Below are positions 5,862 through 33,628 of a stretch of DNA of 64,000 bases, piece after piece. Made by a program: the position numbers and the translations under genes. Source of the DNA: a virus. Positions within the stretch are counted from its first letter, which is position 1. Every line of letters starts with the position of its first letter. Location: IMG/VR virus record IMGVR_UViG_3300027806_000001, positions 96,001 to 160,000 of that record. One strand, written 5' to 3'. Below the pieces are notes generated by a model that worked only from the letters and a program-made list of their open reading frames with translations, was not told where the DNA came from and did not search any database.

Positions 5862-7769
5862 TCAGTTGGTCCTCGTGGCGTAGTTCCCGTAGGGGGACCG
5901 GCCCTGGTCAGGTGGTCCAAGGACGGCCTGCAGCAGGGCGGGATCGTTCAGCAGCATCGTCATCGTGGCCGGATCGACCGCCTGGCTCAGCCTTCTGGAG
6001 GCATCGACGGTAGGCGCAGGGGACTGCAGAGCTTCCTCCCGGCTCCTGTACCAGTTGGCCAGGGTCTGGTAGGCCTGGGGATCGGAAGCGGCCAGCTCGC
6101 CAAGTTCCGCCTGGGTGCGGGAGTTCTCCGGAATCGCTCCGTAGATCGAGTCCCTGAGTTCCGGACTGACCCTCTGCAGCACATCCATGACGGCCTGCGG
6201 CGACTGGCCCAGGCCCACCAGCCTCTGGGTCAGTTCGGAGCCCAGGCCCTGCCGGTTCAAGGCTGCCTGCTCGCGGTCGAACTCGGCCCTGGCCTTGCGC
6301 TGGGAGTAGGTCTCGAGCCCCTTGAACGGAGCCGAGGCCTCCATGGCGCCGGTGGCCAGGCGGACAAATGCGTTGTCCGGAATGTCCTGCTCGAGCTGAG
6401 AGCGGATCACGTCGAGTTCCTTGGTGTCGGGATAGCTGACGTTGCCGTACTGATCCACGGGAACCCCCTGTTCGGTCGCGGATCGCAGCACATTCTCCCG
6501 GAGAGGGGCTTTGGAGAGAAGGGAGGCGGGAATGGTAAAGGCCTGCGCGGTGTTCGGGAGGCCGGTCATGCGCTGGGCCGGACCCACGGCGAGCTCCCTT
6601 GCGACTTCGCCAAAGGACGCGTTCGGATTGTCGCCCAGCAGCTCGCCTGCCGAGGAGAGGCCTGCCTCCGCACCCTGGGCGAAGTTGCCCAACCCCCAGC
6701 CGCGGCCCAGGGATCCTAAGGCGAACTGCGTCAGTTGACCCGGCACCGTCGCCGTCGCCCCGGAGCCGGAGAGGACTGCCGGAGCCATCCTGGAGCCGGA
6801 GATGGACCAGAGGGGATTGAGCGCGCTGCCGAAGGCGTTGAAGACTCCCTTGGCCCCTTGTTCACCGAACCCTGCAACCGTGCGCAAGGCGCCGGGGGAG
6901 AGCTTGGAGGAGAACTGAGGCAAGGCGAACGCCCCCTCGTACAAAGCCTTGGGGACGACCCTGCCTGCGGAGCTGACCGCCTGGCCTGCCCGGGCGACGA
7001 CCGGAGCCACCTTGGCCGGCACCGCGGACATGATTTTGCCTCCGGCGGCGGTGACGAGGTTGCCTGCCCGGGATGCCAAAGAGGGCAGCACCGCCTTGGT
7101 TGCTCCGGCTCTGCCGGCGTTGGCGACAAGGGCGGCGTTTCCCTGCCCGCCGGTGGCTGCCGCGGTCAGGGCGTGGGCTCCTGTAGCAAGTGAGGTGCCT
7201 GCCCAGTTCTGCAAGGAATTACGCGCGAGCACGGGATCCCGCTCCATGGCGTCGTACATCAGGAAGGAGTTGACGCCCGCCTTGCCTGCGTCGGGCAGGT
7301 ATTTGGTGTAGTAGGCGCCCTGATCCTCCAGGCCTTCCTGGACGGCCTGCTGGTTGTCTGTCATGTAGTTGTAGGCGATGCCTGGCCAGCTCATGTTCCA
7401 CGCCGCGCTGGCGTACGGCTGCACGGTGTCCCGCCAGAACTCCCTTGGCCTCGCGTTCCTGACGTAGGCCGGAGGCAGCAGGTCCTCCTCGGTCATCCTG
7501 CGGCCCATGATCGGAACGACCGCCGGCACGGCCTGACGACCAGGCTGATCGTAGATGCCGCCGGCGGCCCGGGAGCTGGACGCGGCGCCGGGCCGCGGCT
7601 CAGGCAGGGACGCCCCCACCGGTTCCGGTTGCCGAGTCCTTGCGTTCGACTGGACGCGGCCTGCCGGCGACATCATGCCCATCAGGTTCTGGTTCTGGAT
7701 GCTCTCCAGGGAGTTGCCGGGACCTGGGCCCTGCGCTGACTTGACGTGATGGTCGTATGGCTTGGGCAT
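5862..7769 (-). CDS. Large Ala/Gly-rich protein, possibly an ejected or internal virion protein
   Basis: 635-aa ORF in the structural cluster; no recognisable catalytic motif. Confidence 0.5.
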   Translation of the reverse strand: MPKPYDHHVKSAQGPGPGNSLESIQNQNLMGMMSPAGRVQSNARTRQPEPVGASLPEPRPGAASSSRAAGGIYDQPGRQAVPAVVPIMGRRMTEEDLLPPAYVRNARPREFWRDTVQPYASAAWNMSWPGIAYNYMTDNQQAVQEGLEDQGAYYTKYLPDAGKAGVNSFLMYDAMERDPVLARNSLQNWAGTSLATGAHALTAAATGGQGNAALVANAGRAGATKAVLPSLASRAGNLVTAAGGKIMSAVPAKVAPVVARAGQAVSSAGRVVPKALYEGAFALPQFSSKLSPGALRTVAGFGEQGAKGVFNAFGSALNPLWSISGSRMAPAVLSGSGATATVPGQLTQFALGSLGRGWGLGNFAQGAEAGLSSAGELLGDNPNASFGEVARELAVGPAQRMTGLPNTAQAFTIPASLLSKAPLRENVLRSATEQGVPVDQYGNVSYPDTKELDVIRSQLEQDIPDNAFVRLATGAMEASAPFKGLETYSQRKARAEFDREQAALNRQGLGSELTQRLVGLGQSPQAVMDVLQRVSPELRDSIYGAIPENSRTQAELGELAASDPQAYQTLANWYRSREEALQSPAPTVDASRRLSQAVDPATMTMLLNDPALLQAVLGPPDQGRSPYGNYATRTN

Positions 7770-7877: not shown

Positions 7878-8591
7878 ATGAACACGCGCGTCGACTACAG
7901 CCCCCTTCGCCAACATCTCATGGAGAAGACGGCCTTCCTGGGCGATCTGCTTGGATCAAGCAAGTACGAGCCGCAGATTCTGGAGGACGTACCGTCGATT
8001 GACGACTTCGATCCTATGACCCAGGACTACGAGCAGGCCCTGGACAAATACTGGAAGAGCCTGGGCTACTCGGACGTGCGGCGGCACGACTACGCCCCAT
8101 CAGGAACTCCGTACACCATGAAGGGCCCCGACGGCCGCTACTACGAGGCCGCCATGAACGAGGACCTGGGCAAGTGGGAGCTGACTCCCATGGGCGGTCC
8201 TCAGCACGACATGGCCGAGCACCCCGACGATCTGCCGGATACCTACAACCGCAAGGGTCCGAGCCTGGGCAGGGACAAGAACTCCATGGACTACAGCCTC
8301 CTTCGCCAGCACCTCATGGAGAAGATCGCAGCCTCTCCGGCCTGGACCAGGGCCGAGGGCAAGAACCCCGAGGGCGGCCTCAACGCCAAGGGCCGGGCCA
8401 GCTACAAGGCGCAGACGGGCGGCACCCTGCGTCCGCCGGTCACCAAGGATCGCGCCGACAAGAGCCCCAAGGACGCCAAGCGCCGGGCCAGCTTCTGCGC
8501 TCGAAGCGCAGGCCAGATGAAGATGTGGCCGGAGGCCGCCAAGGATCCGGAGAGTAGGCTCAGGAAGGCCCGCCGGGCCTGGGACTGCTGA
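7878..8591 (+). CDS. Two-module protein ending in a conserved phage domain (AWTRxEGKNPxGGLN...SFCAR...WDC)
   Basis: C-terminal motif set recalled from many phage proteins; duplicated DYSxLRQHLMEKxA leader; convergent terminator follows. Confidence 0.75.
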   Translation: MNTRVDYSPLRQHLMEKTAFLGDLLGSSKYEPQILEDVPSIDDFDPMTQDYEQALDKYWKSLGYSDVRRHDYAPSGTPYTMKGPDGRYYEAAMNEDLGKWELTPMGGPQHDMAEHPDDLPDTYNRKGPSLGRDKNSMDYSLLRQHLMEKIAASPAWTRAEGKNPEGGLNAKGRASYKAQTGGTLRPPVTKDRADKSPKDAKRRASFCARSAGQMKMWPEAAKDPESRLRKARRAWDC

Positions 8592-8600
8592 GCCTCCGAC

Positions 8601-8648
8601 AGCTAAAAGAAAGACCCTCGGTTTTGGCCGGGGGTCTTTCTTTTAGCT
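8601..8648. terminator. Bidirectional intrinsic terminator between convergent units
   Basis: Perfect 17-bp inverted repeat AGCTAAAAGAAAGACCC / GGGTCTTTCTTTTAGCT giving T tracts on both strands. Confidence 0.85.
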
Positions 8649-8671
8649 GCTCACTCTCACTCATCGCATGC

Positions 8672-8959
8672 TCATTCGGAGACTCCTTTGCCGTCGCCGC
8701 GGCCGCTGCCACCGCCCATGCCGCTGCCGCAGACGCTGCCGTAGCCCCAGCCTCTGCCATTGCCGTCGCCGCGGCCGCTGCCACCGCCCATGCCGCTGCC
8801 GCAGACGCTGCCGTAGCCCCAGCCTGTGCCGCTGCCATCGCCGCCGCCGCTGCCGCCGCTGCTGTGGTCCCAGCCTCTGCCGTCGCCGTTGCCTCTGCCG
8901 TTGCCGCCGCCCTTGCCCCTGCCATCGCCATCACCGTGGCCATTACCTGGGTTGCTCAT
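8672..8959 (-). CDS. Gly-X repeat protein, unit 1
   Basis: MSNPGNG...GDGKGVSE; internal direct duplication of GWGYGSVCGSGMGGGSGRGDG. Confidence 0.7.
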   Translation of the reverse strand: MSNPGNGHGDGDGRGKGGGNGRGNGDGRGWDHSSGGSGGGDGSGTGWGYGSVCGSGMGGGSGRGDGNGRGWGYGSVCGSGMGGGSGRGDGKGVSE

Positions 8960-9240
8960 GATGAACCTCCTTCGCCGTTGCCACTGCCGTTGCCATCGCC
9001 GCTGCCGGCGCCGTCGCCGTAGCCCCTGCCGTTGCCGTAACCTTTGCCGTTGCCCCGGCCTTCGCCATCGCCGCCGCCGTTGCCGCTGCCCCAGCCTGTG
9101 CCGTGGCCGCAGCCTGTGCCGCGGCCTATGCCGTAGCCCATGCCGCTGCCCTCGCCGTCACCCGAGCCGCTGCTCCAGCCCTTGCCGTCCCCCATGCCGT
9201 TGCCCTCGCCCTCGCCATGGCCATTACCTGGGTTGCTCAT
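8956..9240 (-). CDS. Gly-X repeat protein, unit 2
   Basis: MSNPGNG...GNGEGGSS; SD GGAGG; ATGA overlap. Confidence 0.7.
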   Translation of the reverse strand: MSNPGNGHGEGEGNGMGDGKGWSSGSGDGEGSGMGYGIGRGTGCGHGTGWGSGNGGGDGEGRGNGKGYGNGRGYGDGAGSGDGNGSGNGEGGSS

Positions 9241-9586
9241 TCGAAACCTCCTTCGGCATCCTCGAGTAGATCGGCTCGCGCAGCCTGAGGATGTAGTGGT
9301 CGCCCTCGCTCTGAGGCCCGACCTCCACGTCTATCATGGCCGCCTGCACCAGGTCGCACATCAGGGGGTGCACGTCCCTGAGGCGCAGCCTGAACATACC
9401 GGCCACGTCGCGCAGCTGGACGCCCGCCGGCCCCGCGGCCGACACCAGGGCCATCACGGCCTTCCTGCGGTCCGCCGAGCGCAGCAGCCGCCGGCCGGGG
9501 CCTGCCGCCTTGCGCCGGACCCTGTGCCGCTCGGCAAGCTGCTCGGCAAGCATGCGGAGCCTCGTGTCGATCGCCGGACCGCTCAT
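9224..9586 (-). CDS. Putative winged helix-turn-helix protein inserted in the Gly array
   Basis: RKAVMALVSAAGPAGVQLRDVAGMFRL..HPLMCDLVQAAMIDVE pattern. Confidence 0.5.
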   Translation of the reverse strand: MSGPAIDTRLRMLAEQLAERHRVRRKAAGPGRRLLRSADRRKAVMALVSAAGPAGVQLRDVAGMFRLRLRDVHPLMCDLVQAAMIDVEVGPQSEGDHYILRLREPIYSRMPKEVSNEQPR

Positions 9587-9999
9587 GCCGAGCCTCCTTT
9601 GCCGTTGCCCTTGCCGTTGCCGTAACCTTTGCCGTCGCCCCGGCCTTCGCCATCGCCGCGGCCATCGCCACCAAAGACAAAGCCATGCGCCGAGCCGTGG
9701 CCGTAGCCTTTGCCGTTGCCGTAGCCCCTGCCGCTACCGCTGCCATAGCCGCGGCCGTAACCCCTGCCGTTGCCGCTGCCGTCGCCATCACCGTGGCCCT
9801 CGCCGAAGCCGCTGCCGAGTCCATTGCCTGCGTTGCCATGGCCGCCGCCGTCACCCGTGCCATCGCCCCAGCCGCTGCCGTAGCCATGGCCGTCGCCCAT
9901 GCCGCTGCCGCGGCCGCTGCCTTCACCGCTGCCGCTGCAATAGCCGGAGCCGCTGCCGTTGCCCTCGCCGCTGCCGTTGCCGTTACCTGGGTTGCTCAT
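9583..9999 (-). CDS. Gly-X repeat protein, unit 3
   Basis: MSNPGNG...GNGKGGSA. Confidence 0.7.
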   Translation of the reverse strand: MSNPGNGNGSGEGNGSGSGYCSGSGEGSGRGSGMGDGHGYGSGWGDGTGDGGGHGNAGNGLGSGFGEGHGDGDGSGNGRGYGRGYGSGSGRGYGNGKGYGHGSAHGFVFGGDGRGDGEGRGDGKGYGNGKGNGKGGSA

Positions 10000-10319
10000 T
10001 CGGAACCTCCTTTGCCGTTGCCCACGCCGCTGACGCTGCCGAAGCCGCTGCCGAGTCCATTGCCTGCGTTGCCATGGCCGCTGCCGTAGCCCCCGCCGTC
10101 ACCCGTGCCATCGCCCCAGCCGCTGCCGCTGCCTTTGCCATCGCCCCAGCCGCTGCCATCGCCATAGCCCCTGCCGTTGCCGCTGCCATAGCCCCTGCCG
10201 TTGCCGCTGCCACAGCCACTGCCGTAGCCATAGCCGGTGCCATCGCCCCAGCCGCTGCCGTAGCCGTTGCCCCTGCCACAACCGTGGCCGTTGCCGTTGC
10301 CACTACCTGGGTCGCTCAT
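9996..10319 (-). CDS. Gly-X repeat protein, unit 4
   Basis: Start trimmed to MSDPGSG (ATG 10319 after GGAGGTTCCGA); ends GNGKGGSE. Confidence 0.7.
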   Translation of the reverse strand: MSDPGSGNGNGHGCGRGNGYGSGWGDGTGYGYGSGCGSGNGRGYGSGNGRGYGDGSGWGDGKGSGSGWGDGTGDGGGYGSGHGNAGNGLGSGFGSVSGVGNGKGGSE

Positions 10320-10648
10320 TCGGAACCTCCTTTGCCGTTGCCCCATCCGTAGCCGGTGCCCCATCCGTAGCCGGTGCCCCAGCCGCTGCCATCGCCGCTG
10401 CCGTTACCCCAGCCGGTGCCGTAGCCATAGCCGGTGCCATCGCCCCAGCCGATGCCATGGCCGTAGCCGTCGCCGCTGCCGTCGCCGTTGCCCCAGCCGT
10501 TGCCGCTGCCCGTGCCGCCGCCGTCGTTTTGGCCAAAACCGCCGCCGAAGCCCCTGCCGTCGCCATCGCCCCTGCCGCTGCCGTAGCCGCTGCCGCAGCC
10601 ATGGCCGCGGCCGCTGCCCTCACCCTGGCCGTTACCTGGGTTGCTCAT
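10316..10648 (-). CDS. Gly-X repeat protein, unit 5
   Basis: Start trimmed to MSNPGNG (ATG 10648); ends GNGKGGSE. Confidence 0.7.
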   Translation of the reverse strand: MSNPGNGQGEGSGRGHGCGSGYGSGRGDGDGRGFGGGFGQNDGGGTGSGNGWGNGDGSGDGYGHGIGWGDGTGYGYGTGWGNGSGDGSGWGTGYGWGTGYGWGNGKGGSE

Positions 10649-10959
10649 TCGGAGCCTCCCTTGCCGTTGCCCATGCCGCCGCCAGTGCCGCAGCCGTAGC
10701 CGCCGCCGTCTCCTCTTCCGCCGCATTTGCCAAAGCCATGGCCGGTGCCGTCACCGAAGCCCTTACCTCTGCCGAAGCCCTTACCGTTGCCCCAGCCGCT
10801 GCCTTTGCCATCGCCCCAGCCGTAGCCGTCAGCGCTGCCCATGCCGCGGCCGCCGCCGTAGCCGCTGCAATAGCCGGAGCCGCTGCCGTCGTTTTGGCCA
10901 AAACCGCCGCCGAAGCCCCTGCCGCTGCCGTTGCCATTGCCACTACCTGGGTCGCTCAT
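10645..10959 (-). CDS. Gly-X repeat protein, unit 6
   Basis: MSDPGSG...GNGKGGSE. Confidence 0.7.
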   Translation of the reverse strand: MSDPGSGNGNGSGRGFGGGFGQNDGSGSGYCSGYGGGRGMGSADGYGWGDGKGSGWGNGKGFGRGKGFGDGTGHGFGKCGGRGDGGGYGCGTGGGMGNGKGGSE

Positions 10960-11261
10960 TCGGAGCCTCCTTTGCCGTTGCCACTGCCGTCGCCGATGCC
11001 GTAGCCCTCGCCGAAGCCCTTGCCATTGCAGTAGCCCCAGCCGAAGCCCCAGCCACTGCCATCGCCGTAGCCTCTGCCGAAGCCATCGCCGCCGCCGCTG
11101 CCGCGGCCGTTGCCGAGGCCCTCGCCGTTGCCGCTGCCGCCGCCCATGCCTCTGCCGTTGCCGTTGCCGCTGCCCTCGCCGCTGCCGCTGCCCATGCCTC
11201 CGCCCCTGCCGTTGCCGTCGCCATCACCCTGGCCGCTACCTTGTAAGTAGTTACCCATCAT
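10956..11261 (-). CDS. Gly-X repeat protein, unit 7 (variant N-terminus)
   Basis: MMGNYLQGSGQG...GNGKGGSE. Confidence 0.65.
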   Translation of the reverse strand: MMGNYLQGSGQGDGDGNGRGGGMGSGSGEGSGNGNGRGMGGGSGNGEGLGNGRGSGGGDGFGRGYGDGSGWGFGWGYCNGKGFGEGYGIGDGSGNGKGGSE

Positions 11262-11463
11262 GCCTCCTCATGTGCCGAGCGTTGAGGAAGAGCAGGGCCA
11301 GCACCCAGATAACCGAGGCCAGACAGGCGGCCACCCACACGACGGTGACCCATCCGGGACTGTTGGCGCCGTCAGCCTTGAGGACCAGGTTGGTCAGGAG
11401 CCCACTCCCTGTGAGAACAAGGCACGACCGCGCCCAAATGTATTCGTACTTTCTGGTTTTCAT
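11251..11463 (-). CDS. Small two-TM membrane protein
   Basis: Start trimmed to MKTRKYEY; two hydrophobic stretches. Confidence 0.55.
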   Translation of the reverse strand: MKTRKYEYIWARSCLVLTGSGLLTNLVLKADGANSPGWVTVVWVAACLASVIWVLALLFLNARHMRRHDG

Positions 11464-12170
11464 GGCTTCTCCTTCACTTTCTCCAGCAGCTGCTGGTACC
11501 TGGCATGCGCCGAGGCAAGGCACGAGTGGTGCTCCGCGCTCAGGAGATGCGACAACTTCGCGTCGAAGCCGCACCTGTACCGGGCGGTTGTCTTGATACG
11601 CTGCGGGTCGCTCCCGTCGCGTGGCGCAGCTCGGACTGCCGACATGGATTCGATCAAGGATCCGCTGACGATCGTCGGCTGGGGTCCGGAGATGGTCATA
11701 CGGAACCCCGTCACCCAGCCGTTCCTGGACCAGACCTCTTCCGTCAGCTCCTCGGGCTTGGCCTCTTCCTCGCCTTCCAGGATCTTCCACCGGTCATGCC
11801 TGGGCTTCAGCAGCCACCAGGTGCTGCCCCAGAGGTAGCAGACCGTGCGCTCCTCCGTGCCTCCGAACGGCAGCTGCAAGGACGTCAGCCGCAGCTGCGG
11901 ATTGACAGACACCGACCACTCCTTCCTGTCGAAGACGATCGCCTGGTCCCCGATGTACCTGAGGGTCAACGTCTTGAAGACTAGCTTGCTGAAGGTGTCG
12001 TGGCAGGTGCCGACGACATCTCCGACCTTGAGCCCCCACTTGCGGGCATGCTCGGCGTCCGACCCGCGGTTGCCTGGCCTTTCGGTGGAAGCAGTTTCGG
12101 GAGCCGCCAGACGGACCGACTCGTAGCCCAGGTTGTGGAAAACCTTCTCAGCGCATTCTTCCGACCTCAT
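11460..12170 (-). CDS. Hypothetical protein, paralog of 13796-14518
   Basis: Shared ARxWGLKVGDV motif. Confidence 0.65.
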   Translation of the reverse strand: MRSEECAEKVFHNLGYESVRLAAPETASTERPGNRGSDAEHARKWGLKVGDVVGTCHDTFSKLVFKTLTLRYIGDQAIVFDRKEWSVSVNPQLRLTSLQLPFGGTEERTVCYLWGSTWWLLKPRHDRWKILEGEEEAKPEELTEEVWSRNGWVTGFRMTISGPQPTIVSGSLIESMSAVRAAPRDGSDPQRIKTTARYRCGFDAKLSHLLSAEHHSCLASAHARYQQLLEKVKEKP

Positions 12171-12571
12171 TGTGCCTCCTGTCCGGCCGTCACGCCGTAG
12201 GTAAAGGTGCTGACCTTCATGTTTTTATTCTCGTCGATCTCGACGCTCCTGACGATCCTGCCCTCGGAATCGAACCGCTCCTCCTTGGAGGACAGCTCGA
12301 CGGCGTCCCTGCCCCACTCAGGGTCGCTGCGAATCAGCACGGCCTTCCTGCAGACCAGCCTTTCATCGCGGTCGTAGACCTCCGTGGTGGTCCACCTGCA
12401 ATGCAGCCCTGGACCCGGGGTCTTGCAGACCACTTCGCAACCGCCCAGGACATTCCAGGTCTCAGTTCGGTTCGCGCCCATGACCAGCCGGACATGCCCG
12501 TTGGGGTAGAGGACGATGCTCTCGCCCGGACGGTACTTGCAGTGCATTGTCCTGATCGCGTTATTGCTCAT
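12167..12571 (-). CDS. Hypothetical beta-rich protein
   Basis: Coupled ORF; AGGAGGACAAATGAGC junction. Confidence 0.6.
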   Translation of the reverse strand: MSNNAIRTMHCKYRPGESIVLYPNGHVRLVMGANRTETWNVLGGCEVVCKTPGPGLHCRWTTTEVYDRDERLVCRKAVLIRSDPEWGRDAVELSSKEERFDSEGRIVRSVEIDENKNMKVSTFTYGVTAGQEAQ

Positions 12572-12885
12572 TTGTCCTCCTTGGTTTGCTGTTTCTTAAA
12601 CAGGTGGTTCCAGCCTCTTTCGGCGGCGACACCTTCGGGCGTGTTCACTTCGTGTCCGGTTTCGTACCGCCGCATTGCATCGTCGTAGCAAATATCCTCC
12701 TGAGCCTCGTCGCGCTGCTCGATCGCGGCGGCAAGTTCGGCGCGGAGGTGTTCTACCTCGCGCATTCCCTGCCGCAGCATGTCGCCCTCACGGCTGTTGG
12801 GCCATGCGTAGGTTCCATCCGTCTGCGCATATGCGTGGTGCAGATTCAGGAGGAAAATCGACCCTGTCTGCTTGCCGTTGCTCAT
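12568..12885 (-). CDS. Hypothetical protein with xRDEA...GW module
   Basis: EQRDEAQEDICY...AERGWNHLF..TKEDK. Confidence 0.65.
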   Translation of the reverse strand: MSNGKQTGSIFLLNLHHAYAQTDGTYAWPNSREGDMLRQGMREVEHLRAELAAAIEQRDEAQEDICYDDAMRRYETGHEVNTPEGVAAERGWNHLFKKQQTKEDK

Positions 12886-13190
12886 TCGGAACCTCCCTGG
12901 CCGTTGCCAAAGCCGAAGCGATAGCCATGGCCATAGCCATGGCCAACGCCATTGCCATGGTCGCCACCATAGGCGAGGCCGTAGCCGCAGCCATGGCCGC
13001 TGCCCCAGCCCCTGCCGTTTCCGCTGCCGCGACCAATGCCGTGACCAAAACCGTTGCCCTTGCCCTCGCCGTAACCCTCGGCATTGCCGCCGCCGTAGCC
13101 GCGGCGCCTGCCATCGCCGCTGCCTTGCGCAGTGCCGCCGCCGTAGCCGCTGCCGTCGCCGAAACCGGGGTCATTACTCGGGTTGCTCAT
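12882..13190 (-). CDS. Gly-X repeat protein, unit 8
   Basis: MSNPSND...GNGQGGSE. Confidence 0.7.
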   Translation of the reverse strand: MSNPSNDPGFGDGSGYGGGTAQGSGDGRRRGYGGGNAEGYGEGKGNGFGHGIGRGSGNGRGWGSGHGCGYGLAYGGDHGNGVGHGYGHGYRFGFGNGQGGSE

Positions 13191-13498
13191 TAGGAACCTC
13201 CTTTGCCATTGCCCATGCCATTGCCCATGCCGCTGCCATAGCTGCTGCCGCTGCCATCGCCGTTGCCCTCGCCGTATCCATCGCCACTGCTACGGCCACG
13301 GCCGTGGCCGTAGCCCCCGCCGTTGCCGCAGCCGTTGCCTTCACCTTCGCCGTGGCCTCGGCCGTAGCCGCCTCCGCTGACATTACCATGGCCACTACCC
13401 CTGCCATCTCCAAAGCCGCCGCCGTTGCCCCTGCCCATGCCGTTGCCCCTGCCGTCACCACCACCATCGCCCCTACCTGGGTTGCCCGGGTTGCTCAT
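13190..13498 (-). CDS. Gly-X repeat protein, unit 9
   Basis: MSNPGNPG...GNGKGGS. Confidence 0.7.
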   Translation of the reverse strand: MSNPGNPGRGDGGGDGRGNGMGRGNGGGFGDGRGSGHGNVSGGGYGRGHGEGEGNGCGNGGGYGHGRGRSSGDGYGEGNGDGSGSSYGSGMGNGMGNGKGGS

Positions 13499-13812
13499 TC
13501 GGAACCTCCTTTGCCGTTGCCGTAGCCATTACCCCGGCCATCGCCGTAGCCCCTGCCATCGCCGTGGCCTACGCCTATGCCTGCACCGTAGCCCTGACCG
13601 TAACCGCTGCCATTGCCGCTGCCACTGCCCCAGCCACCGCCATCGCAGCCCCTGACGATGCCATCGCCGCAGCCACTGCCGTTGCCATTGCCCTGGCCAT
13701 CGCCCCGGCCGTAGCCCCTGCCACCGCCCCAGCCGCCACCTGAGCCGCCTGCGCTGCCCTCGCCACAGCCTCGACCGTTGCCATTACCTTGGCCATTACC
13801 TGGGTTGCTCAT
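13495..13812 (-). CDS. Gly-X repeat protein, unit 10
   Basis: MSNPGNG...GNGKGGSE. Confidence 0.7.
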   Translation of the reverse strand: MSNPGNGQGNGNGRGCGEGSAGGSGGGWGGGRGYGRGDGQGNGNGSGCGDGIVRGCDGGGWGSGSGNGSGYGQGYGAGIGVGHGDGRGYGDGRGNGYGNGKGGSE

Positions 13813-14518
13813 CTGTCCTCCTGCTGCTTGATCGCTCCACCGTGGTGGTGGTGACGGAGTCCCCTACGGTGATGACCTCCTTGACCATCTTGTCGTCCCG
13901 GTCGAGCCAGGTCTCGATGGTGTTGCCGCTGATCGCGGCGATGGCCAGCTTCTGCGTGCTGAGCAGTTCGCCGGAGGGGGACCAGAGGCGGGTGGTCACC
14001 GTGGTGAGAGAATCCCCGTCCACGTATCTGGAGGTAGTCTTGCAGCTTCCATCCCGGGCGTGGAGATGCGTCGTTCCATTGGAATCCTCGAGCTCGACGT
14101 CGCCGTTCTCACGCAGGGTCACCTTGAGGACGCTCATGCCCCTGGCGTGGATGACGCGGTCCTTGGCCGGCTCCGCCTTCGGCTCCGGGATCCGCTCCAT
14201 GAGGCGCCAGTGCCTGCAGGACAGGGAGTACGACGAGGTCTCGGGACACGTTCTGCAGGCTTTGGAGTCCACGTCGTCGGCAAAGAAGTCGTACATCTGC
14301 TCCTCCCACAGCACGCACCTCAGCCCGATGTGCAGCACCCGCAGGAAGACGATGTTTCCTACGCCTTTGTCGCAGGCGGTGTAGCGCTCGACTCCGGAGA
14401 TCACGTCCCCTACCTTGAGCCCCCATGTCCTCGCGGTTGCTGCCGGAGGCTCCACCATGTCCCCCCGGCCCAGCTCCCGGACCACCCGGTAGCCGTTCAC
14501 TTCCTGGAAATCGCTCAT
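13796..14518 (-). CDS. Hypothetical protein, paralog of 11460-12170
   Basis: Start trimmed to MSDFQEV after AAGGAGGACAG; ARTWGLKVGDV motif. Confidence 0.65.
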   Translation of the reverse strand: MSDFQEVNGYRVVRELGRGDMVEPPAATARTWGLKVGDVISGVERYTACDKGVGNIVFLRVLHIGLRCVLWEEQMYDFFADDVDSKACRTCPETSSYSLSCRHWRLMERIPEPKAEPAKDRVIHARGMSVLKVTLRENGDVELEDSNGTTHLHARDGSCKTTSRYVDGDSLTTVTTRLWSPSGELLSTQKLAIAAISGNTIETWLDRDDKMVKEVITVGDSVTTTTVERSSSRRTDEQPR

Positions 14519-15003
14519 CTGTCCTCCTTGGTTTCTTGTTCGTTGTACAGGTAGCCCCAGCCGCAGACTTCCGCGACCGACTCGGGAGTCGTGCACTCCA
14601 CCGTCTTCCCGTCGACTCGGCGGTACACGCCACCCATTCGCGCACACAGCTCGCAAACCCGGATCCGCGCCTCGTCGCGCTCCTTGACCGCGTCCAGGAG
14701 TTCCCTGCGCAGGACCAGGATCTCATCGGCCTGGCTCAGGCGCTCTTCGCCCTTCGGAGTTCCGTCCGGGTAGGCCCACTTGTGCCTTGTGGGGTAGTCG
14801 ACCAAGGAGCTCAGGTAGAGGATCCTGCCCTCTTTGGTCGGCTTCCAGATCCGCCTCCAGGCCCCGGTCTCGCCGTGAGACTGGTGGGAGCACGTGGCTA
14901 TGAAGCTCCAAGTACTGCTTCGGGGGTACTGCTCAAGCAGCCACCTGAGCGCAGGCTTGTCCTCCTCTGAAGAGTTTGACTCTATCTCCTTGATGATGCT
15001 CAT
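14515..15003 (-). CDS. Hypothetical protein with ERDEAR...GWGYLY module
   Basis: KERDEARIRVCEL...CGWGYLYNEQETKEDR. Confidence 0.7.
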   Translation of the reverse strand: MSIIKEIESNSSEEDKPALRWLLEQYPRSSTWSFIATCSHQSHGETGAWRRIWKPTKEGRILYLSSLVDYPTRHKWAYPDGTPKGEERLSQADEILVLRRELLDAVKERDEARIRVCELCARMGGVYRRVDGKTVECTTPESVAEVCGWGYLYNEQETKEDR

Positions 15004-15317
15004 CTGTCCTCCTTGGCTTCTCGCTGGTTGTACAGGTAGCCCCAGCCGCGGATCCTGGCGTGCCTGGCCGCGTCGTCGATGCTGCCGTTGGAGCTCAGCT
15101 CGCAGACCTCGATCCTGGCGTTGTCCCGCTCCTTGATCAGGGATTCCAGGTTGCGCAGGTGCTCCATTGCGACTTCGTGATGCTGCCTGTTCGCGCCCTT
15201 CATTGCGTCCAGCATCTCGGTGCGAGCCCGTTGCTCGCCCCGTACCGCCACGACGATGAAGATGGAGAACACGATCGAAGAGAAGACGATCGCCGCGCTG
15301 ATCATTGATTCAAACAT
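15000..15317 (-). CDS. Membrane-anchored protein with ERDNAR...GWGYLY module
   Basis: N-terminal TM segment; KERDNARIEVCEL...RGWGYLYNQREAKEDR. Confidence 0.7.
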   Translation of the reverse strand: MFESMISAAIVFSSIVFSIFIVVAVRGEQRARTEMLDAMKGANRQHHEVAMEHLRNLESLIKERDNARIEVCELSSNGSIDDAARHARIRGWGYLYNQREAKEDR

Positions 15318-17586: not shown

Positions 17587-18165
17587 CTACACCCGCTCGC
17601 GCCGGATCCGCCTGAGCCTCGCCTTGAGGATCAAGCCCTGTTCCCACGACAGGTGGGGCCATGGCCCCTCCTCGTCGCCCTGTAACGTCCTGGCCGTGGC
17701 CAGGGCCTGCTCAGGGCTCACCGGCGACGCCACGCCGTCGGTGAGCACCCAGCCTCCCGGCCACCACTCGGGGCACGTATTGAGCGCCTCGGGCGGGCAC
17801 ATCTCCCGCAGCTCCTGGGCGTCGTCCCCCTGCGCCAGGCCGATGCGGCCGTGGGCGGGCAGCACGACCTTGACCAGCGGGGTGGCCAGCGCGACACGGA
17901 TGTCCCGCTCCCACATCCAGACATGGCCGGCCGGATGCGGGCCCTCCCCGTGATGGACCACCAGCATCTCGTGGCCCGTGCCCGTCCACGAGAGGAGGTA
18001 CTCGTAGAGGCTCTCCATCGCCAGCACCTGCCGCTGGTCCATGCCGGACGGATCCCGCATGGCGTGGAGCAGATCCGAGATGACCAGCAGGCACTGCTGC
18101 TCGGAGAGCGTCCACGGGCAGATCGTCTGGTACTTGGACCAGATCTCCAAGGCCTTCGCCTTCAT
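17587..18165 (-). CDS. Hypothetical protein
   Basis: Coupled ORF with SD. Confidence 0.6.
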   Translation of the reverse strand: MKAKALEIWSKYQTICPWTLSEQQCLLVISDLLHAMRDPSGMDQRQVLAMESLYEYLLSWTGTGHEMLVVHHGEGPHPAGHVWMWERDIRVALATPLVKVVLPAHGRIGLAQGDDAQELREMCPPEALNTCPEWWPGGWVLTDGVASPVSPEQALATARTLQGDEEGPWPHLSWEQGLILKARLRRIRRERV

Positions 18166-18641
18166 GCCCTTTCCTTTCTGGCCTTCGCGGCCTTGAGCAC
18201 CTTGGCCCAGTAGGCCTTGGTGCCCTGCTTGGAGTGGCCCTTTGGACCACCGTTGTGGATTCTGGCCAGGTCCTCCCAGGTGGCGCCCTTGGGGGCGTAC
18301 CTGGTCAGGTAGGCCTTGACGACCTCCCGGGCATACGCCCGGTTGGTCACGGCAGAGTAGCCTTGAGCCTTCAGGTCAGGCCTGCGCTCGACAGCGTCGA
18401 GCCAGTAGACACGCCAGATCTGAAAAGCCCCTAGCGCCTTGCCTCCGTCTCCGACGGCTTGGTCAGGGTTCGACTCTCCTCCGGACTCCACGGCCTGGAG
18501 CGCGTCCAGGAACGTGTCCCAGTCGAGGTCGACCCCTCCTACATCGCGGACATCCTGTCCACGGAGTTCGCCCTTGGCGAATGCCTCGGGCTGGCTGGCC
18601 GCCACGAGGGCGGCCACGATGAGAATGAGAACGGTCTTCAT
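18162..18641 (-). CDS. Exported lysozyme-like muramidase, invertebrate-type/destabilase-like
   Basis: Signal-like N-terminus; LQAVES, GAFQIWRVYW.DA, EDLARIHNGGP.G...T..YW.KV. Confidence 0.75.
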   Translation of the reverse strand: MKTVLILIVAALVAASQPEAFAKGELRGQDVRDVGGVDLDWDTFLDALQAVESGGESNPDQAVGDGGKALGAFQIWRVYWLDAVERRPDLKAQGYSAVTNRAYAREVVKAYLTRYAPKGATWEDLARIHNGGPKGHSKQGTKAYWAKVLKAAKARKERA

Positions 18642-20938: not shown

Positions 20939-21706
20939 CAGGTTTGTGTGACTTTAGTCACTCCCTGGACCATCTCATCGCCTTGGCCTTGAAGGGCTTT
21001 AGGCGTCGGACGCTGACTCCGGTAATTAAGAGGACTTCACCTCTCCGGTGGTCTCTGCACCTTCCGCAGGTGTACCTGCGGCTTGGCTCAGGATTGCCTT
21101 GTGGAGGCGGTAGTGCCGCATCCATTTCCTTACGGCGTTGTCGCTCACGCCGTATTTTCTACCTATGGCAAGAAGGGAGTTTTCAGCAAGATCCTGTGTT
21201 AGATCATGTTTGCTGGGCCTTCTTGATCGGGAGGAGATGGCTTGTTTTCGGCACTGCTCTGAACATGTGGCCTTTTGGGCTCCCTGCAGGGTGGCTTCGC
21301 AGCCTTCACAATATTCAGCCTTTTTCCATTTAGGTTTCCCTGAATTCATCCGATTCGCACCCTCAGCTTTCGCTGAGGGGGCACCGCACGACAGCCAATG
21401 CTCGATCCTGGAATGCTGACCTCTGGTAAGCACCAGCAGGTTAGACAGGCGGTTGTTTGCCTTGTCCCCATCCAGATGATGGGTGACTTCGTCCTCCGTC
21501 AAAGGCCTCTCAAGTGACTGTTCCACCACCAGGATATGCTCGTACACATACCCCTTCCAGTTACTCGAGGTCATTGCAGAAGGATGATCTGGACGGTACA
21601 ACACCCTGTAGCCATTCAAGATTCGAGCTGACTTGTCGCCCATGCTGTGTTCTCCTAAGGGCTGCATTATAGCAGCCTCTCATTTGAACCTAGGTCATGG
21701 GTGCAG
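20939..21706 (-). mobile_element. Group I intron (Azoarcus tRNA-Ile-like, IC3) inserted immediately after the CAU anticodon
   Basis: Core elements GAATTCAGGGAAACCTAA, GGCAATCCTGAGCCAAGC, GAAGGTGCAGAGAC; 3' end CCAGGGAGTGACTAAAGTCACACAAACCTG ending in omega-G; guide GTGCGGTG can pair CAU|CUGCAC with a U.G pair. Confidence 0.9.
21026..21643 (-). CDS. Intron-encoded HNH homing endonuclease with Cys-rich zinc-finger-like and HTH modules
   Basis: YVYEHILV...EVTHHLDGDKANNRLSNL (HNH); CxxC-x12-CxxxC; AIGRKYGVSDNAVRKWM (HTH); SD AGGAG and TGCTATAAT inside the intron. Confidence 0.88.
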   Translation of the reverse strand: MGDKSARILNGYRVLYRPDHPSAMTSSNWKGYVYEHILVVEQSLERPLTEDEVTHHLDGDKANNRLSNLLVLTRGQHSRIEHWLSCGAPSAKAEGANRMNSGKPKWKKAEYCEGCEATLQGAQKATCSEQCRKQAISSRSRRPSKHDLTQDLAENSLLAIGRKYGVSDNAVRKWMRHYRLHKAILSQAAGTPAEGAETTGEVKSS

Positions 21707-31223: not shown

Positions 31224-32558
31224 TCAGCCCTTGACGTGGATGGTGGTGCCGTATGGCGCGATGACCTGGCTGTTGATGACCCAGATGACGTCGAAGTCCG
31301 GCGGCTCGCCGAACTCGCCGTACCCGTCGGTGAAGTAGACCAGCACGTCCGGCCGGTCGTGCCCCATGTCCGAGATGTGGCGCATGACCGGCACGAAGCT
31401 GGTGCCTCCGCCTCCGGTCACCCTGGGGATGTCCTCGTAGGGACCGATCCAGCGGTTTCCGTAGACCTCGGCGTCGCACTCGAGCAGGTACGTGGGCAGG
31501 CCGTAGAGCTTGCGCACGCCGTCGAACTCGGACAGGCCCTTGAGGATGTCCTCCTCGGACATGGATCCCGAGGTGTCGATCGAGAAGCCCACCGACGGAA
31601 CCTTGCCGGCCCTGCGGCTGGGCAGGAGGATGTCCTGCCACAGGTGCCTGCGGGACGGAGGCACGAACGTGGACCTGCCCTTGACCTTGGTGCAGTACTT
31701 GCTGCGCATGCAGTAGGCCAGGGCTTCCTCCCACCTGACCTGAGGCTTGAGCAGCCTGCCGACCGCCCGCTCCATGTGCGCCGGCAGCTTGCCCTGCAGC
31801 TTGGCCCGGGTGGCCGCCTGCGCGGCCGCCTCGGTCCACCCGCCGTTCTCCTTGTTGGGGACCTCCTCGGTCCTCTCCTTGAGGGCCTGGCCTCCGTCGG
31901 GCTGGGGATCGCCGGGCTCGAGGATGTCCTGGCCGATGCCGTCGCGCTCCTGGTCGTCCTGCTCCTGGTCGCCATTTTCGCCTGAACCAGCCTGGGCGCC
32001 GACCTTGCCCTTCTTCCCGTCCTTGCCTTTCCCCTTTCCGTCGCACTGGCGCACAAGCATCTCGTAGACGATCTCGGCGGTCGCCAGGTCCAGGTCGACC
32101 TCCAGGGCCGCGCAGGTCTCCTGGTCCCAGTAGCAGCCCCGGCTGACCAGCCTGCGCAGGTTGTCGACGCCTCCGAAGTGGTTGACCAGCAGGTGGTTGA
32201 TCATGATGTCGGCGGCGGTGTTCCAGATCTTCCGGTCGCGGGCATGCCTGCGCACGTTGTGGCCGAGCAGCGGGTGCATGATCTCGTGGGCCAGCAGGAA
32301 CGCCTTGCTGCGCATGTCCAGGGAGTTCCAGAATCCGAAGTTGAGGTAGATCTTGCCCTCGTAGGAGACGCCCGCGGTCGGGACGTACGGATTGTCCGCC
32401 GGCAGCATCACCAGCTCGAACTTCTCGATCAGGAAGCCCCAGAACGGGAACTCCCTGAACATCCAGAATATGAGCTTCGACAGCCCCCTCCGGGCCGCCT
32501 CCAGCTCCTGCTCGGAGATGGAGGCGGCCTTGCCGGAGACGGGGGCCTTGGTTTGCAT
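31224..32558 (-). CDS. DUF2201-like metallopeptidase plus VWA domain protein
   Basis: Start trimmed to MQTKAP; FLLAHEIMH (HExxH), WNTAADIMIN, IDTSGSMS (MIDAS), GGGTSF, YFTDGYG. Confidence 0.88.
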   Translation of the reverse strand: MQTKAPVSGKAASISEQELEAARRGLSKLIFWMFREFPFWGFLIEKFELVMLPADNPYVPTAGVSYEGKIYLNFGFWNSLDMRSKAFLLAHEIMHPLLGHNVRRHARDRKIWNTAADIMINHLLVNHFGGVDNLRRLVSRGCYWDQETCAALEVDLDLATAEIVYEMLVRQCDGKGKGKDGKKGKVGAQAGSGENGDQEQDDQERDGIGQDILEPGDPQPDGGQALKERTEEVPNKENGGWTEAAAQAATRAKLQGKLPAHMERAVGRLLKPQVRWEEALAYCMRSKYCTKVKGRSTFVPPSRRHLWQDILLPSRRAGKVPSVGFSIDTSGSMSEEDILKGLSEFDGVRKLYGLPTYLLECDAEVYGNRWIGPYEDIPRVTGGGGTSFVPVMRHISDMGHDRPDVLVYFTDGYGEFGEPPDFDVIWVINSQVIAPYGTTIHVKG

Positions 32559-32596
32559 CGCTGTCACTTGTCCTCCTCTTTCTCGTGACCCTCGGG

Positions 32597-33628
32597 TCAG
32601 ACCTTGTAGTCGGCGAGCAGCTGCTTGTGCTTCTCGTTCCAGCTCTTGAAGCTGGCGGACTTGATGAGCATGGGCATGATCTTCGGATCCTTCTGCGCCA
32701 GCATGCCGGCGAAGAACAGGGACGCGATCTCGGGCCGGATGCGGCAGCCGTTCGTCCCGGCCATCACGCCCGCGGCCTTCTCGAAGATGGAGAGCTTGCG
32801 CACGGTGCGGTGCAGGATGTTCGACACGACCGCGTAGGTCAGCGACATCTTGCTGGGGCCGTCCTCGTAGGACGCCTTGCCGTCCAGCAGGGCGTCGATG
32901 TCGGGCAGGTTCTTGGCCTCCCGGCGGTACTCCAGGAACCAGCCCGCCGCGGCCTTGCCCACGGCGCCCTCGACGGCCTGGCGGTCGTCGATCCCGGCCT
33001 TCAGGAGCTTGGACACGGTGGCCCAGGCGCGCGGGGTCGGGAAGTTGCCGTACTCGTCGACCGGCGGCTGGTACAGGTGCTCGCCGGAGCAGTAGGACAT
33101 GAAGCCGAGGACGTCGGGCTCGATGGCGCCGATCGTCATGGCCCAGTTGCGCCACTGGTTGAAGTCCGGCTCCATCTCCACGATCACGAACCGGTTGCGC
33201 AGCGGGGCGCTGAGCGGGTTGACGTGGGCCTTGTGGCTGCTCTTGTTGCCGCAGGCCACGATCCACCAGCCGTCCGCGAGCTTGTGCGGGCCGCACCGGC
33301 GGTCGAGGATGAACTGCAGGGCGGCGTTCTGGACCGACGGGTCGGCGGTGTTGATCTCGTCGAACAGGATGATGCCGCTGCCCGAGGTCGGCAGGAAGTC
33401 GGGCCGGGCCCACGCCACGGTGGGGTCCGAGTCCGAGGTGCGGTTGACGAGCGGCATGCCCCGCATGTCGACCGGCTCGAGCATGCTGAGGCGGACGTCC
33501 TTGACCTCGTCGCCATCGGCGGCCTGCTTGCAGATCTCGGACTTGCCGATGCCGGGGGCGCCGAAGATCAGGAGGGGCACTCCTGCGCGGCGGTAGCTCT
33601 TGATCATCTCGACGTAGTTGCTGTTCAT
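32597..33628 (-). CDS. MoxR-type AAA+ ATPase
   Basis: GAPGIGKS Walker A, ILFDEIN Walker B, LSAPLRNRF, FPTPRAW. Confidence 0.9.
   Translation of the reverse strand: MNSNYVEMIKSYRRAGVPLLIFGAPGIGKSEICKQAADGDEVKDVRLSMLEPVDMRGMPLVNRTSDSDPTVAWARPDFLPTSGSGIILFDEINTADPSVQNAALQFILDRRCGPHKLADGWWIVACGNKSSHKAHVNPLSAPLRNRFVIVEMEPDFNQWRNWAMTIGAIEPDVLGFMSYCSGEHLYQPPVDEYGNFPTPRAWATVSKLLKAGIDDRQAVEGAVGKAAAGWFLEYRREAKNLPDIDALLDGKASYEDGPSKMSLTYAVVSNILHRTVRKLSIFEKAAGVMAGTNGCRIRPEIASLFFAGMLAQKDPKIMPMLIKSASFKSWNEKHKQLLADYKV

Follow-up and report, generated by a model that had tools for sequence, protein, structure and literature searches.

A recombining family of at least 20 glycine-alternating mini-protein genes in an uncultured phage, expanded from a gene that follows DUF6948 in many phages

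Small open reading frames (ORFs) encoding proteins with glycine at alternate positions occur as single copies in several deposited phages, as exemplified by XCO36015.1 of Ralstonia phage NK-7 (annotated as 'fibroin heavy chain-like protein') and CDS0032 of Pectobacterium phage Taid, where they directly follow a gene of the family DUF6948, modelled below as an Sm-like fold. Related sequence types are known from better-studied proteins: SmD1, SmD3 and LSm4 carry Arg-Gly dipeptide tails and Hfq has disordered C-terminal domains, FUS and hnRNPA1 contain prion-like low-complexity domains within large RNA-binding proteins, and the crystalline repeats of silk fibroin (GAGAGS), with Ala or Ser as X, are packed into beta-sheets. 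Two further points of reference are the poxvirus gene accordions (K3L), with recent identical copies varying within populations, and the precursors of prochlorosins and microcin B17, with a fixed leader and a variable core. Here we analyse a family of (Gly-X)n genes in an uncultured phage represented by the complete-rated, 183,468-bp virus record IMGVR_UViG_3300027806_000001 with direct terminal repeats. Ten of its at least 20 full members lie in the 64,000-nucleotide (nt) stretch spanning bases 96001-160000 of that record, hereafter called the window, and the positions given below are those of the window unless referred to the genome.

The genes of this phage share with those of NK-7 and Taid the form of a small Gly-alternating ORF, and the genome itself holds a cassette in which one such gene (Y2, sharing sequence blocks with the window unit W4) directly follows DUF6948. 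Unlike the single genes of NK-7 and Taid, they number 20, of which 18 lie outside the DUF6948 cassette, and their X alphabet is much broader: the single-copy units of deposited phages (Gly 43-47%) are acidic, with a net charge of -6 to -14 and almost only S, Y and D as X, whereas X positions in the 20 units use 19 residue types and the net charge ranges from -5 to about +6. With the Sm proteins and Hfq the parallel lies in an Sm-fold core, modelled here, combined with a disordered, Gly-based dipeptide-repeat element; the repeat is, however, a separate product in this phage, far longer, not dominated by Arg (R 4.9%), and exists in 20 versions. The units are like the FUS and hnRNPA1 domains in their Gly/Ser/Asn matrix, spaced aromatics and Arg, and predicted disorder, but they are free mini-proteins with a Gly period of two. 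The K3L accordion resembles them as a case of tandem copy number changed by recombination in a viral genome, although the copies here are old (~50-65% identical) and their number differs only between diverged relatives. Silk fibroin likewise has Gly at every second residue; X is here instead bulky, charged or aromatic, and no strands are predicted.

The ten window units lie on the minus strand between 8672 and 13812, measure 94-138 amino acids (aa) and contain 43-50% Gly. A sequence-only reading of the window had pointed out these ORFs together with their MS[N/D]P heads (nine of ten, W7 starting with MGNY) and G-x-G-[K/E/Q]-G-[G/V]-S tails (ten of ten), and all these features are indeed present. 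Its 'strict' alternation of Gly has to be relaxed to mostly alternate positions with 0-2 register switches per window unit, and its ten-copy array is not contiguous: the units form blocks of three (W10-W8), five (W7-W3) and two (W2-W1), interrupted by five non-Gly genes, of which gene A splits W2 from W3, whereas a 70-aa hydrophobic ORF and genes B, C and D (11251-12885) split W7 from W8. The features of the array are as follows.

13495-13812, minus strand: unit W10, 105 aa, first of block 1, with a 6-nt Shine-Dalgarno (SD) sequence AGGAGG, head MSNPGNG and tail GNGKGGSE; its start and the end of gene E share 17 nt
13190-13498, minus strand: unit W9, 102 aa; orthologue in the relative L034 90% identical, without frameshift or stop
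12882-13190, minus strand: unit W8, 102 aa; orthologue in the relative L003 88% identical, with no indel
10956-11258, minus strand: unit W7, 100 aa, with the odd head MGNYLQ; 53-nt block identical to unit Y1 at genome 72 kb
10645-10959, minus strand: unit W6, 104 aa
10316-10648, minus strand: unit W5, 110 aa
9996-10319, minus strand: unit W4, 107 aa; 93- and 66-nt blocks identical to the DUF6948-adjacent unit Y2
9583-9999, minus strand: unit W3, 138 aa; 61-nt block identical to unit Z3 at genome 81 kb
8956-9240, minus strand: unit W2, 94 aa
8672-8959, minus strand: unit W1, 95 aa, the last unit, with a recent internal 72-nt duplication (94% match)
8600-8675, minus strand: decayed junction (ATG, three codons and a stop), recognised by reading, then a long hairpin between convergent genes

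The hairpin after W1 is likely a terminator, judging from its sequence; a scan with the consensus junction did not report the decayed junction preceding it. The units are joined by a junction that the sequence-only reading had described as encoding tail, SD, stop and start together, and this description is borne out: a 32-nt junction is matched seven times at up to 3 mismatches, as opposed to no match in 100 shuffles, and in aligned junctions the conservation extends over ~45 nt. It comprises, in this order, the tail codons Gly-Asn-Gly-Lys-Gly-Gly-Ser-Glu, containing AAGGAGG, the ATGA overlap of stop and start, and the head codons Met-Ser-Asn-Pro-Gly-Asn-Gly. The view of the units as paralogues with fixed ends and mosaic cores is likewise supported.

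Several observations speak for the coding status of the units. The Gly frame contains no stop in the 1168 X codons of the 20 units, against 48 expected under a position-independent model (P about 4e-22). Under the GGC-NNN periodicity this is the frame most exposed to stops, since TAC, TGC and TGG abound among the X codons, and 358 of the 1168 X codons are one mutation away from a stop; it is nevertheless the sole open frame of the six across all 20 units, the other five carrying 6-110 stops. An SD of at least 6 nt occurs in eight of the ten window units as compared with 15% of other genes, and the window units carry the strongest ribosome-binding sites of the genome. The same ORFs were called by independent gene callers in other assemblies, and the orthologous pairs W8/L003 and W9/L034, at 88-90% identity, show no frameshifts or stops, so that the free build-up of such lesions that would mark neutral repeats is not seen in these relatives. 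Selection on the units is only mild, the ratio of nonsynonymous to synonymous changes (pN/pS) pooled over these two pairs being 0.35 at Gly codons and 0.52 at X codons from only 53 substitutions. As far as can be judged from these sequence features, the ten ORFs are real, separately translated genes. The obligate translational coupling envisaged in the sequence-only reading does not follow: each unit has its own SD, and the SD-to-ATG stretch is ~50% unpaired in predicted folds and not more buried than its surroundings, which means that each unit could start alone and coupling of an obligate kind is not needed.

The family is not restricted to the window. A six-frame scan combined with a protein search revealed ten more full units and a stub elsewhere in the genome, in three clusters.

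Genome 65.9-66.6 kb: Gly-X cluster of two units
Genome 72.0-72.9 kb: Gly-X cluster of two units, including Y1 and Y2
Genome 80.1-82.7 kb: Gly-X cluster of six units and a stub

The 20 units, in four places, take up 6.6 kb or 3.6% of the genome, and all are small stand-alone ORFs of 83-138 aa with 39-51% Gly and a period of 2. The identical blocks listed above (Y2/W4, Y1/W7 and Z3/W3) indicate that the window units belong to the same family as those of the other clusters and still exchange sequence with them over 24-33 kb.

Variation in copy number, which the sequence-only reading had proposed to look for, is found between relatives and is absent among assemblies of the same phage. Three independent full-length contigs over the 6.9-kb region show 0-3 mismatches, no gaps and the same copy number, from which we conclude that copy number is stable on short time scales; the same phage has been assembled independently from many samples, with several shorter contigs ending inside W4/W5, near 10186 and 10540-10570. 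A relative found in IMG/VR (L002/L003), whose flanks are 92-96% identical, carries, where this phage has its ten window units, just three full ones together with a 34-aa mini-unit and a 25-aa stub. Two of its units follow gene E, gene D is absent, and one unit follows gene A; the mini-unit, consisting of head and tail with the frame kept, replaces the hydrophobic ORF and the five-unit block. In a second relative (L034), whose gene E is 89% identical, three units follow E: two have W9 and W8 as their orthologues, and the first shares only 61% identity with W10. More distant homologues of E have no units downstream. The arrays thus differ between relatives by whole units and keep the reading frame.

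The origin of the family can be sought in the genes following DUF6948. The genome contains one gene of this family (PF22253, 78.6 bits) at genome position 72972-73439, and it is directly followed by Y2, a 74-aa gene and Y1; this cassette lies 33 kb from the window array. In five deposited phages, examined out of 15 records with a DUF6948 match and infecting Ralstonia, Pectobacterium, Iodobacter, Chlorobiaceae and Vibrio, the next ORF after DUF6948 is a (Gly-X)n ORF in every case, and the same holds for five of six metagenomic loci, giving ten of 11 other loci in all. The cassette units of a relative (L026) bear an MSNxG head and a GKGGSE tail, as do the window units. We conclude that the family has arisen by lineage-specific expansion of this (Gly-X)n gene, which many phages carry directly after DUF6948. 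The gene is undescribed, and Pfam has no entry for such mini-proteins.

The annotation of these genes is uneven. The Gly-X ORF of Iodobacter phage PhiPLPE (L006, 1161-1406) is unannotated, and in Chlorobiaceae phage CV-1-33 gene_25 (L007, 1801-2046) is annotated in an Ala/Met/Leu frame, a Gly-X frame with its ATG at the DUF6948 stop being also open. Three of four distant metagenomic DUF6948 loci end inside the repeat, and Gly-X repeats often end short-read contigs (L028-L031, L010, L013, L021 and L022). Contigs ending in repeats and a record annotated in another frame together suggest that the family is under-counted in databases, and Gly-X genes are likely under-represented or truncated in metagenome assemblies.

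The DUF6948 protein is modelled as an Sm-like fold (pLDDT, the predicted local distance difference test score, 88), with an N-terminal helix and then a five-strand bent beta-barrel; the listed PDB matches of the model are almost all Sm/LSm proteins, with probabilities of 0.9-1.0 and template modelling scores by target of 0.5-0.65. Between the DUF6948 gene and the first Gly-X unit lies a GC-rich hairpin with a T-rich tail, followed by the conserved CTTAGCTGTGA.

L001 8873-8972, minus strand: hairpin and CTTAGCTGTGA in this phage
L025 5457-5594: hairpin and CTTAGCTGTGA in a relative

From its sequence, this element could combine a terminator or attenuator with a promoter; the promoter-like CTTAGCTGTGA motif preceding Y2 is not seen again at the arrays of the window.

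The products, in which about every second residue is Gly, are predicted to be intrinsically disordered: an AlphaFold model of W3, built from a 23-sequence alignment, has a pLDDT of 30.8 and no secondary structure. The pooled composition is 46% G, 9% S, 6.4% N, 5.6% D and 5.1% Y besides the Arg mentioned above, with W, F, H, M, C, K, E and T at 1.6-2.7% each; individual units have isoelectric points (pI) of 4.6-9.7 and 5-15 aromatic residues each. The likeness to prion-like low-complexity sequences that had been noticed from the letters thus holds at the level of composition (a Gly matrix with Y/W/F, R, D, N and S, and no predicted fold), whereas an ordered beta structure of the silk type is not predicted. 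The DNA consists of degenerate period-6 repeats throughout (Tandem Repeats Finder), with one recent duplication, that in W1.

Putting these observations together, we favour an explanation in which a coding family has expanded in this phage lineage, is reshaped by recombination and serves a role linked to the Sm-like protein, and we regard this explanation as a whole as somewhat better than an even bet. Its coding, family and recombination parts, taken jointly, are highly probable. The arrays would change by homologous recombination of the unequal and gene-conversion types, a mechanism inferred from the patterns, with the ~45-nt junctions and the degenerate GGC-NNN cores providing in-frame crossover sites, so that whole units would be gained, lost or shortened and blocks copied between clusters. 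The products would be abundant, flexible polypeptides of the sticker-and-spacer type, and their wider choice of X residues (R, K, H, W, F, M and C besides S, Y and D) would diversify their contacts. Repeated pairing with an Sm-fold protein, together with the analogy to Sm proteins with Gly-dipeptide tails, suggests a role in RNA-protein assemblies: the units may join the Sm-like ring protein in trans on RNA, in the manner of detachable low-complexity tails, and build multivalent assemblies with it. That the units work with the Sm-like protein in this way is a tentative proposal by analogy, to which we would give clearly less than an even chance. A bolder version, in which about 20 Gly-X proteins, the single Sm-like ring protein and RNA condense into a membraneless RNA-processing or replication factory, with recombination tuning unit number and X alphabet, appears quite unlikely; if true, it would give a prokaryotic virus its own equivalent of Sm/RG-tail and FUS-type condensates.

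A number of observations weigh against this explanation. Selection on the units is mild and few substitutions are available, and neighbouring genes show similar pN/pS ratios (0.43-1.26), indicating fast evolution of the entire region. Next to the ten window units there is no DUF6948 gene, only Y2 lies directly downstream of one, and there is one Sm-like gene for 20 units; hidden relatives of DUF6948 upstream of the other clusters were considered and rejected, as the upstream neighbours show no likeness to it, and gene E is unrelated as well. The terminator-like hairpin described above separates the DUF6948 gene from Y2, a DUF6948 relative without a Gly-X neighbour exists (L027), and the Sm matches of the DUF6948 model have weak E-values (2e-3 to 2e-2).

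An alternative is that the units are clients or substrates of a pair formed by a MoxR-like AAA+ protein and a DUF2201 VWA/metallopeptidase protein, which would remodel them or cut them into active peptides. Such a pair is encoded in the window (31224-33628), as follows.

32597-33628, minus strand: MoxR-like AAA+ gene (AAA_5, E 8.7e-6), directly upstream of the DUF2201 gene
31224-32567, minus strand: gene with DUF2201_N metallopeptidase and DUF2201 VWA domains; the listed 729-aa ORF overlaps the AAA gene, and the real start is probably near 32567

The nearest unit is, however, 17 kb away, none is adjacent to the pair, and this alternative is unlikely. The units might otherwise be varied decoys or sponges occupying a host sensor, protease or chaperone, the second idea of the sequence-only reading, which is favoured by their many copies, strong ribosome sites, varied X alphabets and charges (with the wide pI range given above) and fast turnover between relatives. 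Against this, searches of Pfam, PHROGs and NCBIfam revealed no defence or anti-defence families close to the units, and the identity of sequences across samples means that no ongoing arms-race variation is seen; we therefore consider a decoy function improbable.

Self-assembly of the units into silk- or amyloid-like fibrils or a structural matrix, the first idea of the sequence-only reading, could be proposed on the grounds that alternating Gly with aromatics resembles fibroin and prion-like domains in composition and that one homologue, that of NK-7, bears a fibroin-like annotation. The AlphaFold model of W3 offers neither strands nor a repeatable fold, bulky and charged residues occupy the X positions where crystalline silk has small ones, most units have register breaks, and no signal peptides are apparent by eye in the units, which leaves fibrils very unlikely. 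Equally, the ORFs could be products of a neutral or selfish hexanucleotide-repeat expansion devoid of a role at the protein level. The degenerate period-6 repeats and the mildness of selection agree with this, and the use of AGC for 74% of Ser codons in units, compared with 25% elsewhere in the genome, indicates that the X codons originated by mutation. Yet the frame kept open is precisely the stop-prone one, every unit has a perfect SD and ATG, and even the 34-aa mini-unit of L003 keeps head, tail and frame, so this explanation, too, has very little probability in our judgement. Precursors of ribosomally synthesised and post-translationally modified peptides (RiPPs) of the TOMM or lanthipeptide type, suggested by the fixed ends and the variable cores containing Gly, Ser and Cys, can be dismissed as highly improbable, as the fixed head comprises only 5-7 residues, the units are 94-138 aa long without a cleavage motif, and the complete genome yields no YcaO or radical-SAM match.

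Two further candidates were rejected. Targets of a diversity-generating retroelement are contradicted by the lack of an RVT_1 match and of a (GGN-AAY)n template and by the identity of the arrays across samples. The Gly-X-Y pattern of collagen-like proteins is not found, the period being two in the protein and 6 in the DNA.

The genes interspersed with the units and flanking them are as follows.

14515-15317, minus strand: genes F (162 aa) and G (105 aa), paralogues of D
13796-14518, minus strand: gene E, 240 aa, the conserved upstream neighbour of block 1
12568-12885, minus strand: gene D, 105 aa, non-Gly, paralogue of F (E 2e-12) and G; absent from L003
12167-12571, minus strand: gene C, 134 aa, non-Gly, with no family; 90% identical in L003
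11460-12170, minus strand: gene B, 236 aa, distant paralogue of E (E 2e-5)
11251-11463, minus strand: hydrophobic 70-aa ORF just upstream of W7, called as a 70-aa gene in independent assemblies
9224-9586, minus strand: gene A, 120 aa, non-Gly, starting on a unit junction (MSGP) and ending inside the next one

The 70-aa ORF likely has two membrane helices, as read from its sequence, and gene A looks by eye like a winged-helix protein. As F, D and G are paralogous, as are E and B, whole modules have been duplicated. The junction sequence, read in another frame, holds the ends of genes A, B' (the L003 copy of B) and E, and junction-type starts are present in genes A, C and D. Beyond the array, the DUF6321 protein encoded at 7878-8591 on the plus strand is 237 aa long here and 105 aa in L003; the start motif MxxxxDYSxLRQHLMEK is present twice in the window copy, suggesting an internal duplication. 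Several proteins downstream of the array (window 5862-7769, minus strand; genome 91273-91782, 98953-99525 and 90179-90628) have in common an N-terminal motif P-Y-x-H-H-V-K-S or A-Y-Y-S-H, which may, from its sequence, be a targeting or processing signal. In a matching ENA contig, genes of the same operon match Destabilase (PF05497, lysozyme-like) and HNH_3; mapped via equal gene lengths, they correspond to about 18162-18641 and about 21026-21667 of the window, both on the minus strand.

The phage itself is remote from those deposited so far. Its GC content is ~67%, a megablast search with the array region gave no match among deposited phages, and no deposited phage protein exceeds 25% identity to its DNA polymerase; this family A enzyme (56709-59606, minus strand) has a UDG-superfamily domain at the N-terminus and a 3'-5' exonuclease domain. 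The sole tRNA of the genome is Arg(CCT) (genome 88748-88822, minus strand), and AGG accounts for 29% of all Arg codons in the genome, an unusual share at this GC content. A tie between this tRNA and the units was rejected, AGG amounting to 21.6 per 1000 codons in units and 18.8 in other genes.

Database searches with the units found little. No match was obtained by phmmer over 5.8 billion proteins, whereas a 23-sequence unit profile run over 1.84 billion representatives gave 911 weak matches, mostly to long Gly-rich proteins, which we read as compositional. A search of the ESM Atlas with the units returned only unnamed viral and bacterial clusters of 79-91 aa, and neither the units nor genes A-G matched a family in Pfam, PHROGs or NCBIfam. 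Metagenomes gave no match when scanned for protein F or for the junction pattern; a search of IMG/VR with the junction pattern yielded one relative. While surveying the literature, we found no paper on DUF6948 or on (Gly-X)n phage genes, and nothing relevant on fibroin-like, Gly-Tyr, glycine-rich or Sm-like phage proteins or on DUF2201.

If the (Gly-X)n genes are translated, as their sequence signals suggest, their products constitute an unstudied class of stand-alone low-complexity proteins that is widespread among phages and paired with an Sm-fold protein, and the genome analysed here is a natural 20-copy version of this arrangement with varied side chains. It raises the questions of whether bacterial viruses pair disordered Gly/aromatic proteins with an RNA chaperone, as eukaryotes do, and of how a protein family keeps its reading frame while recombining freely.

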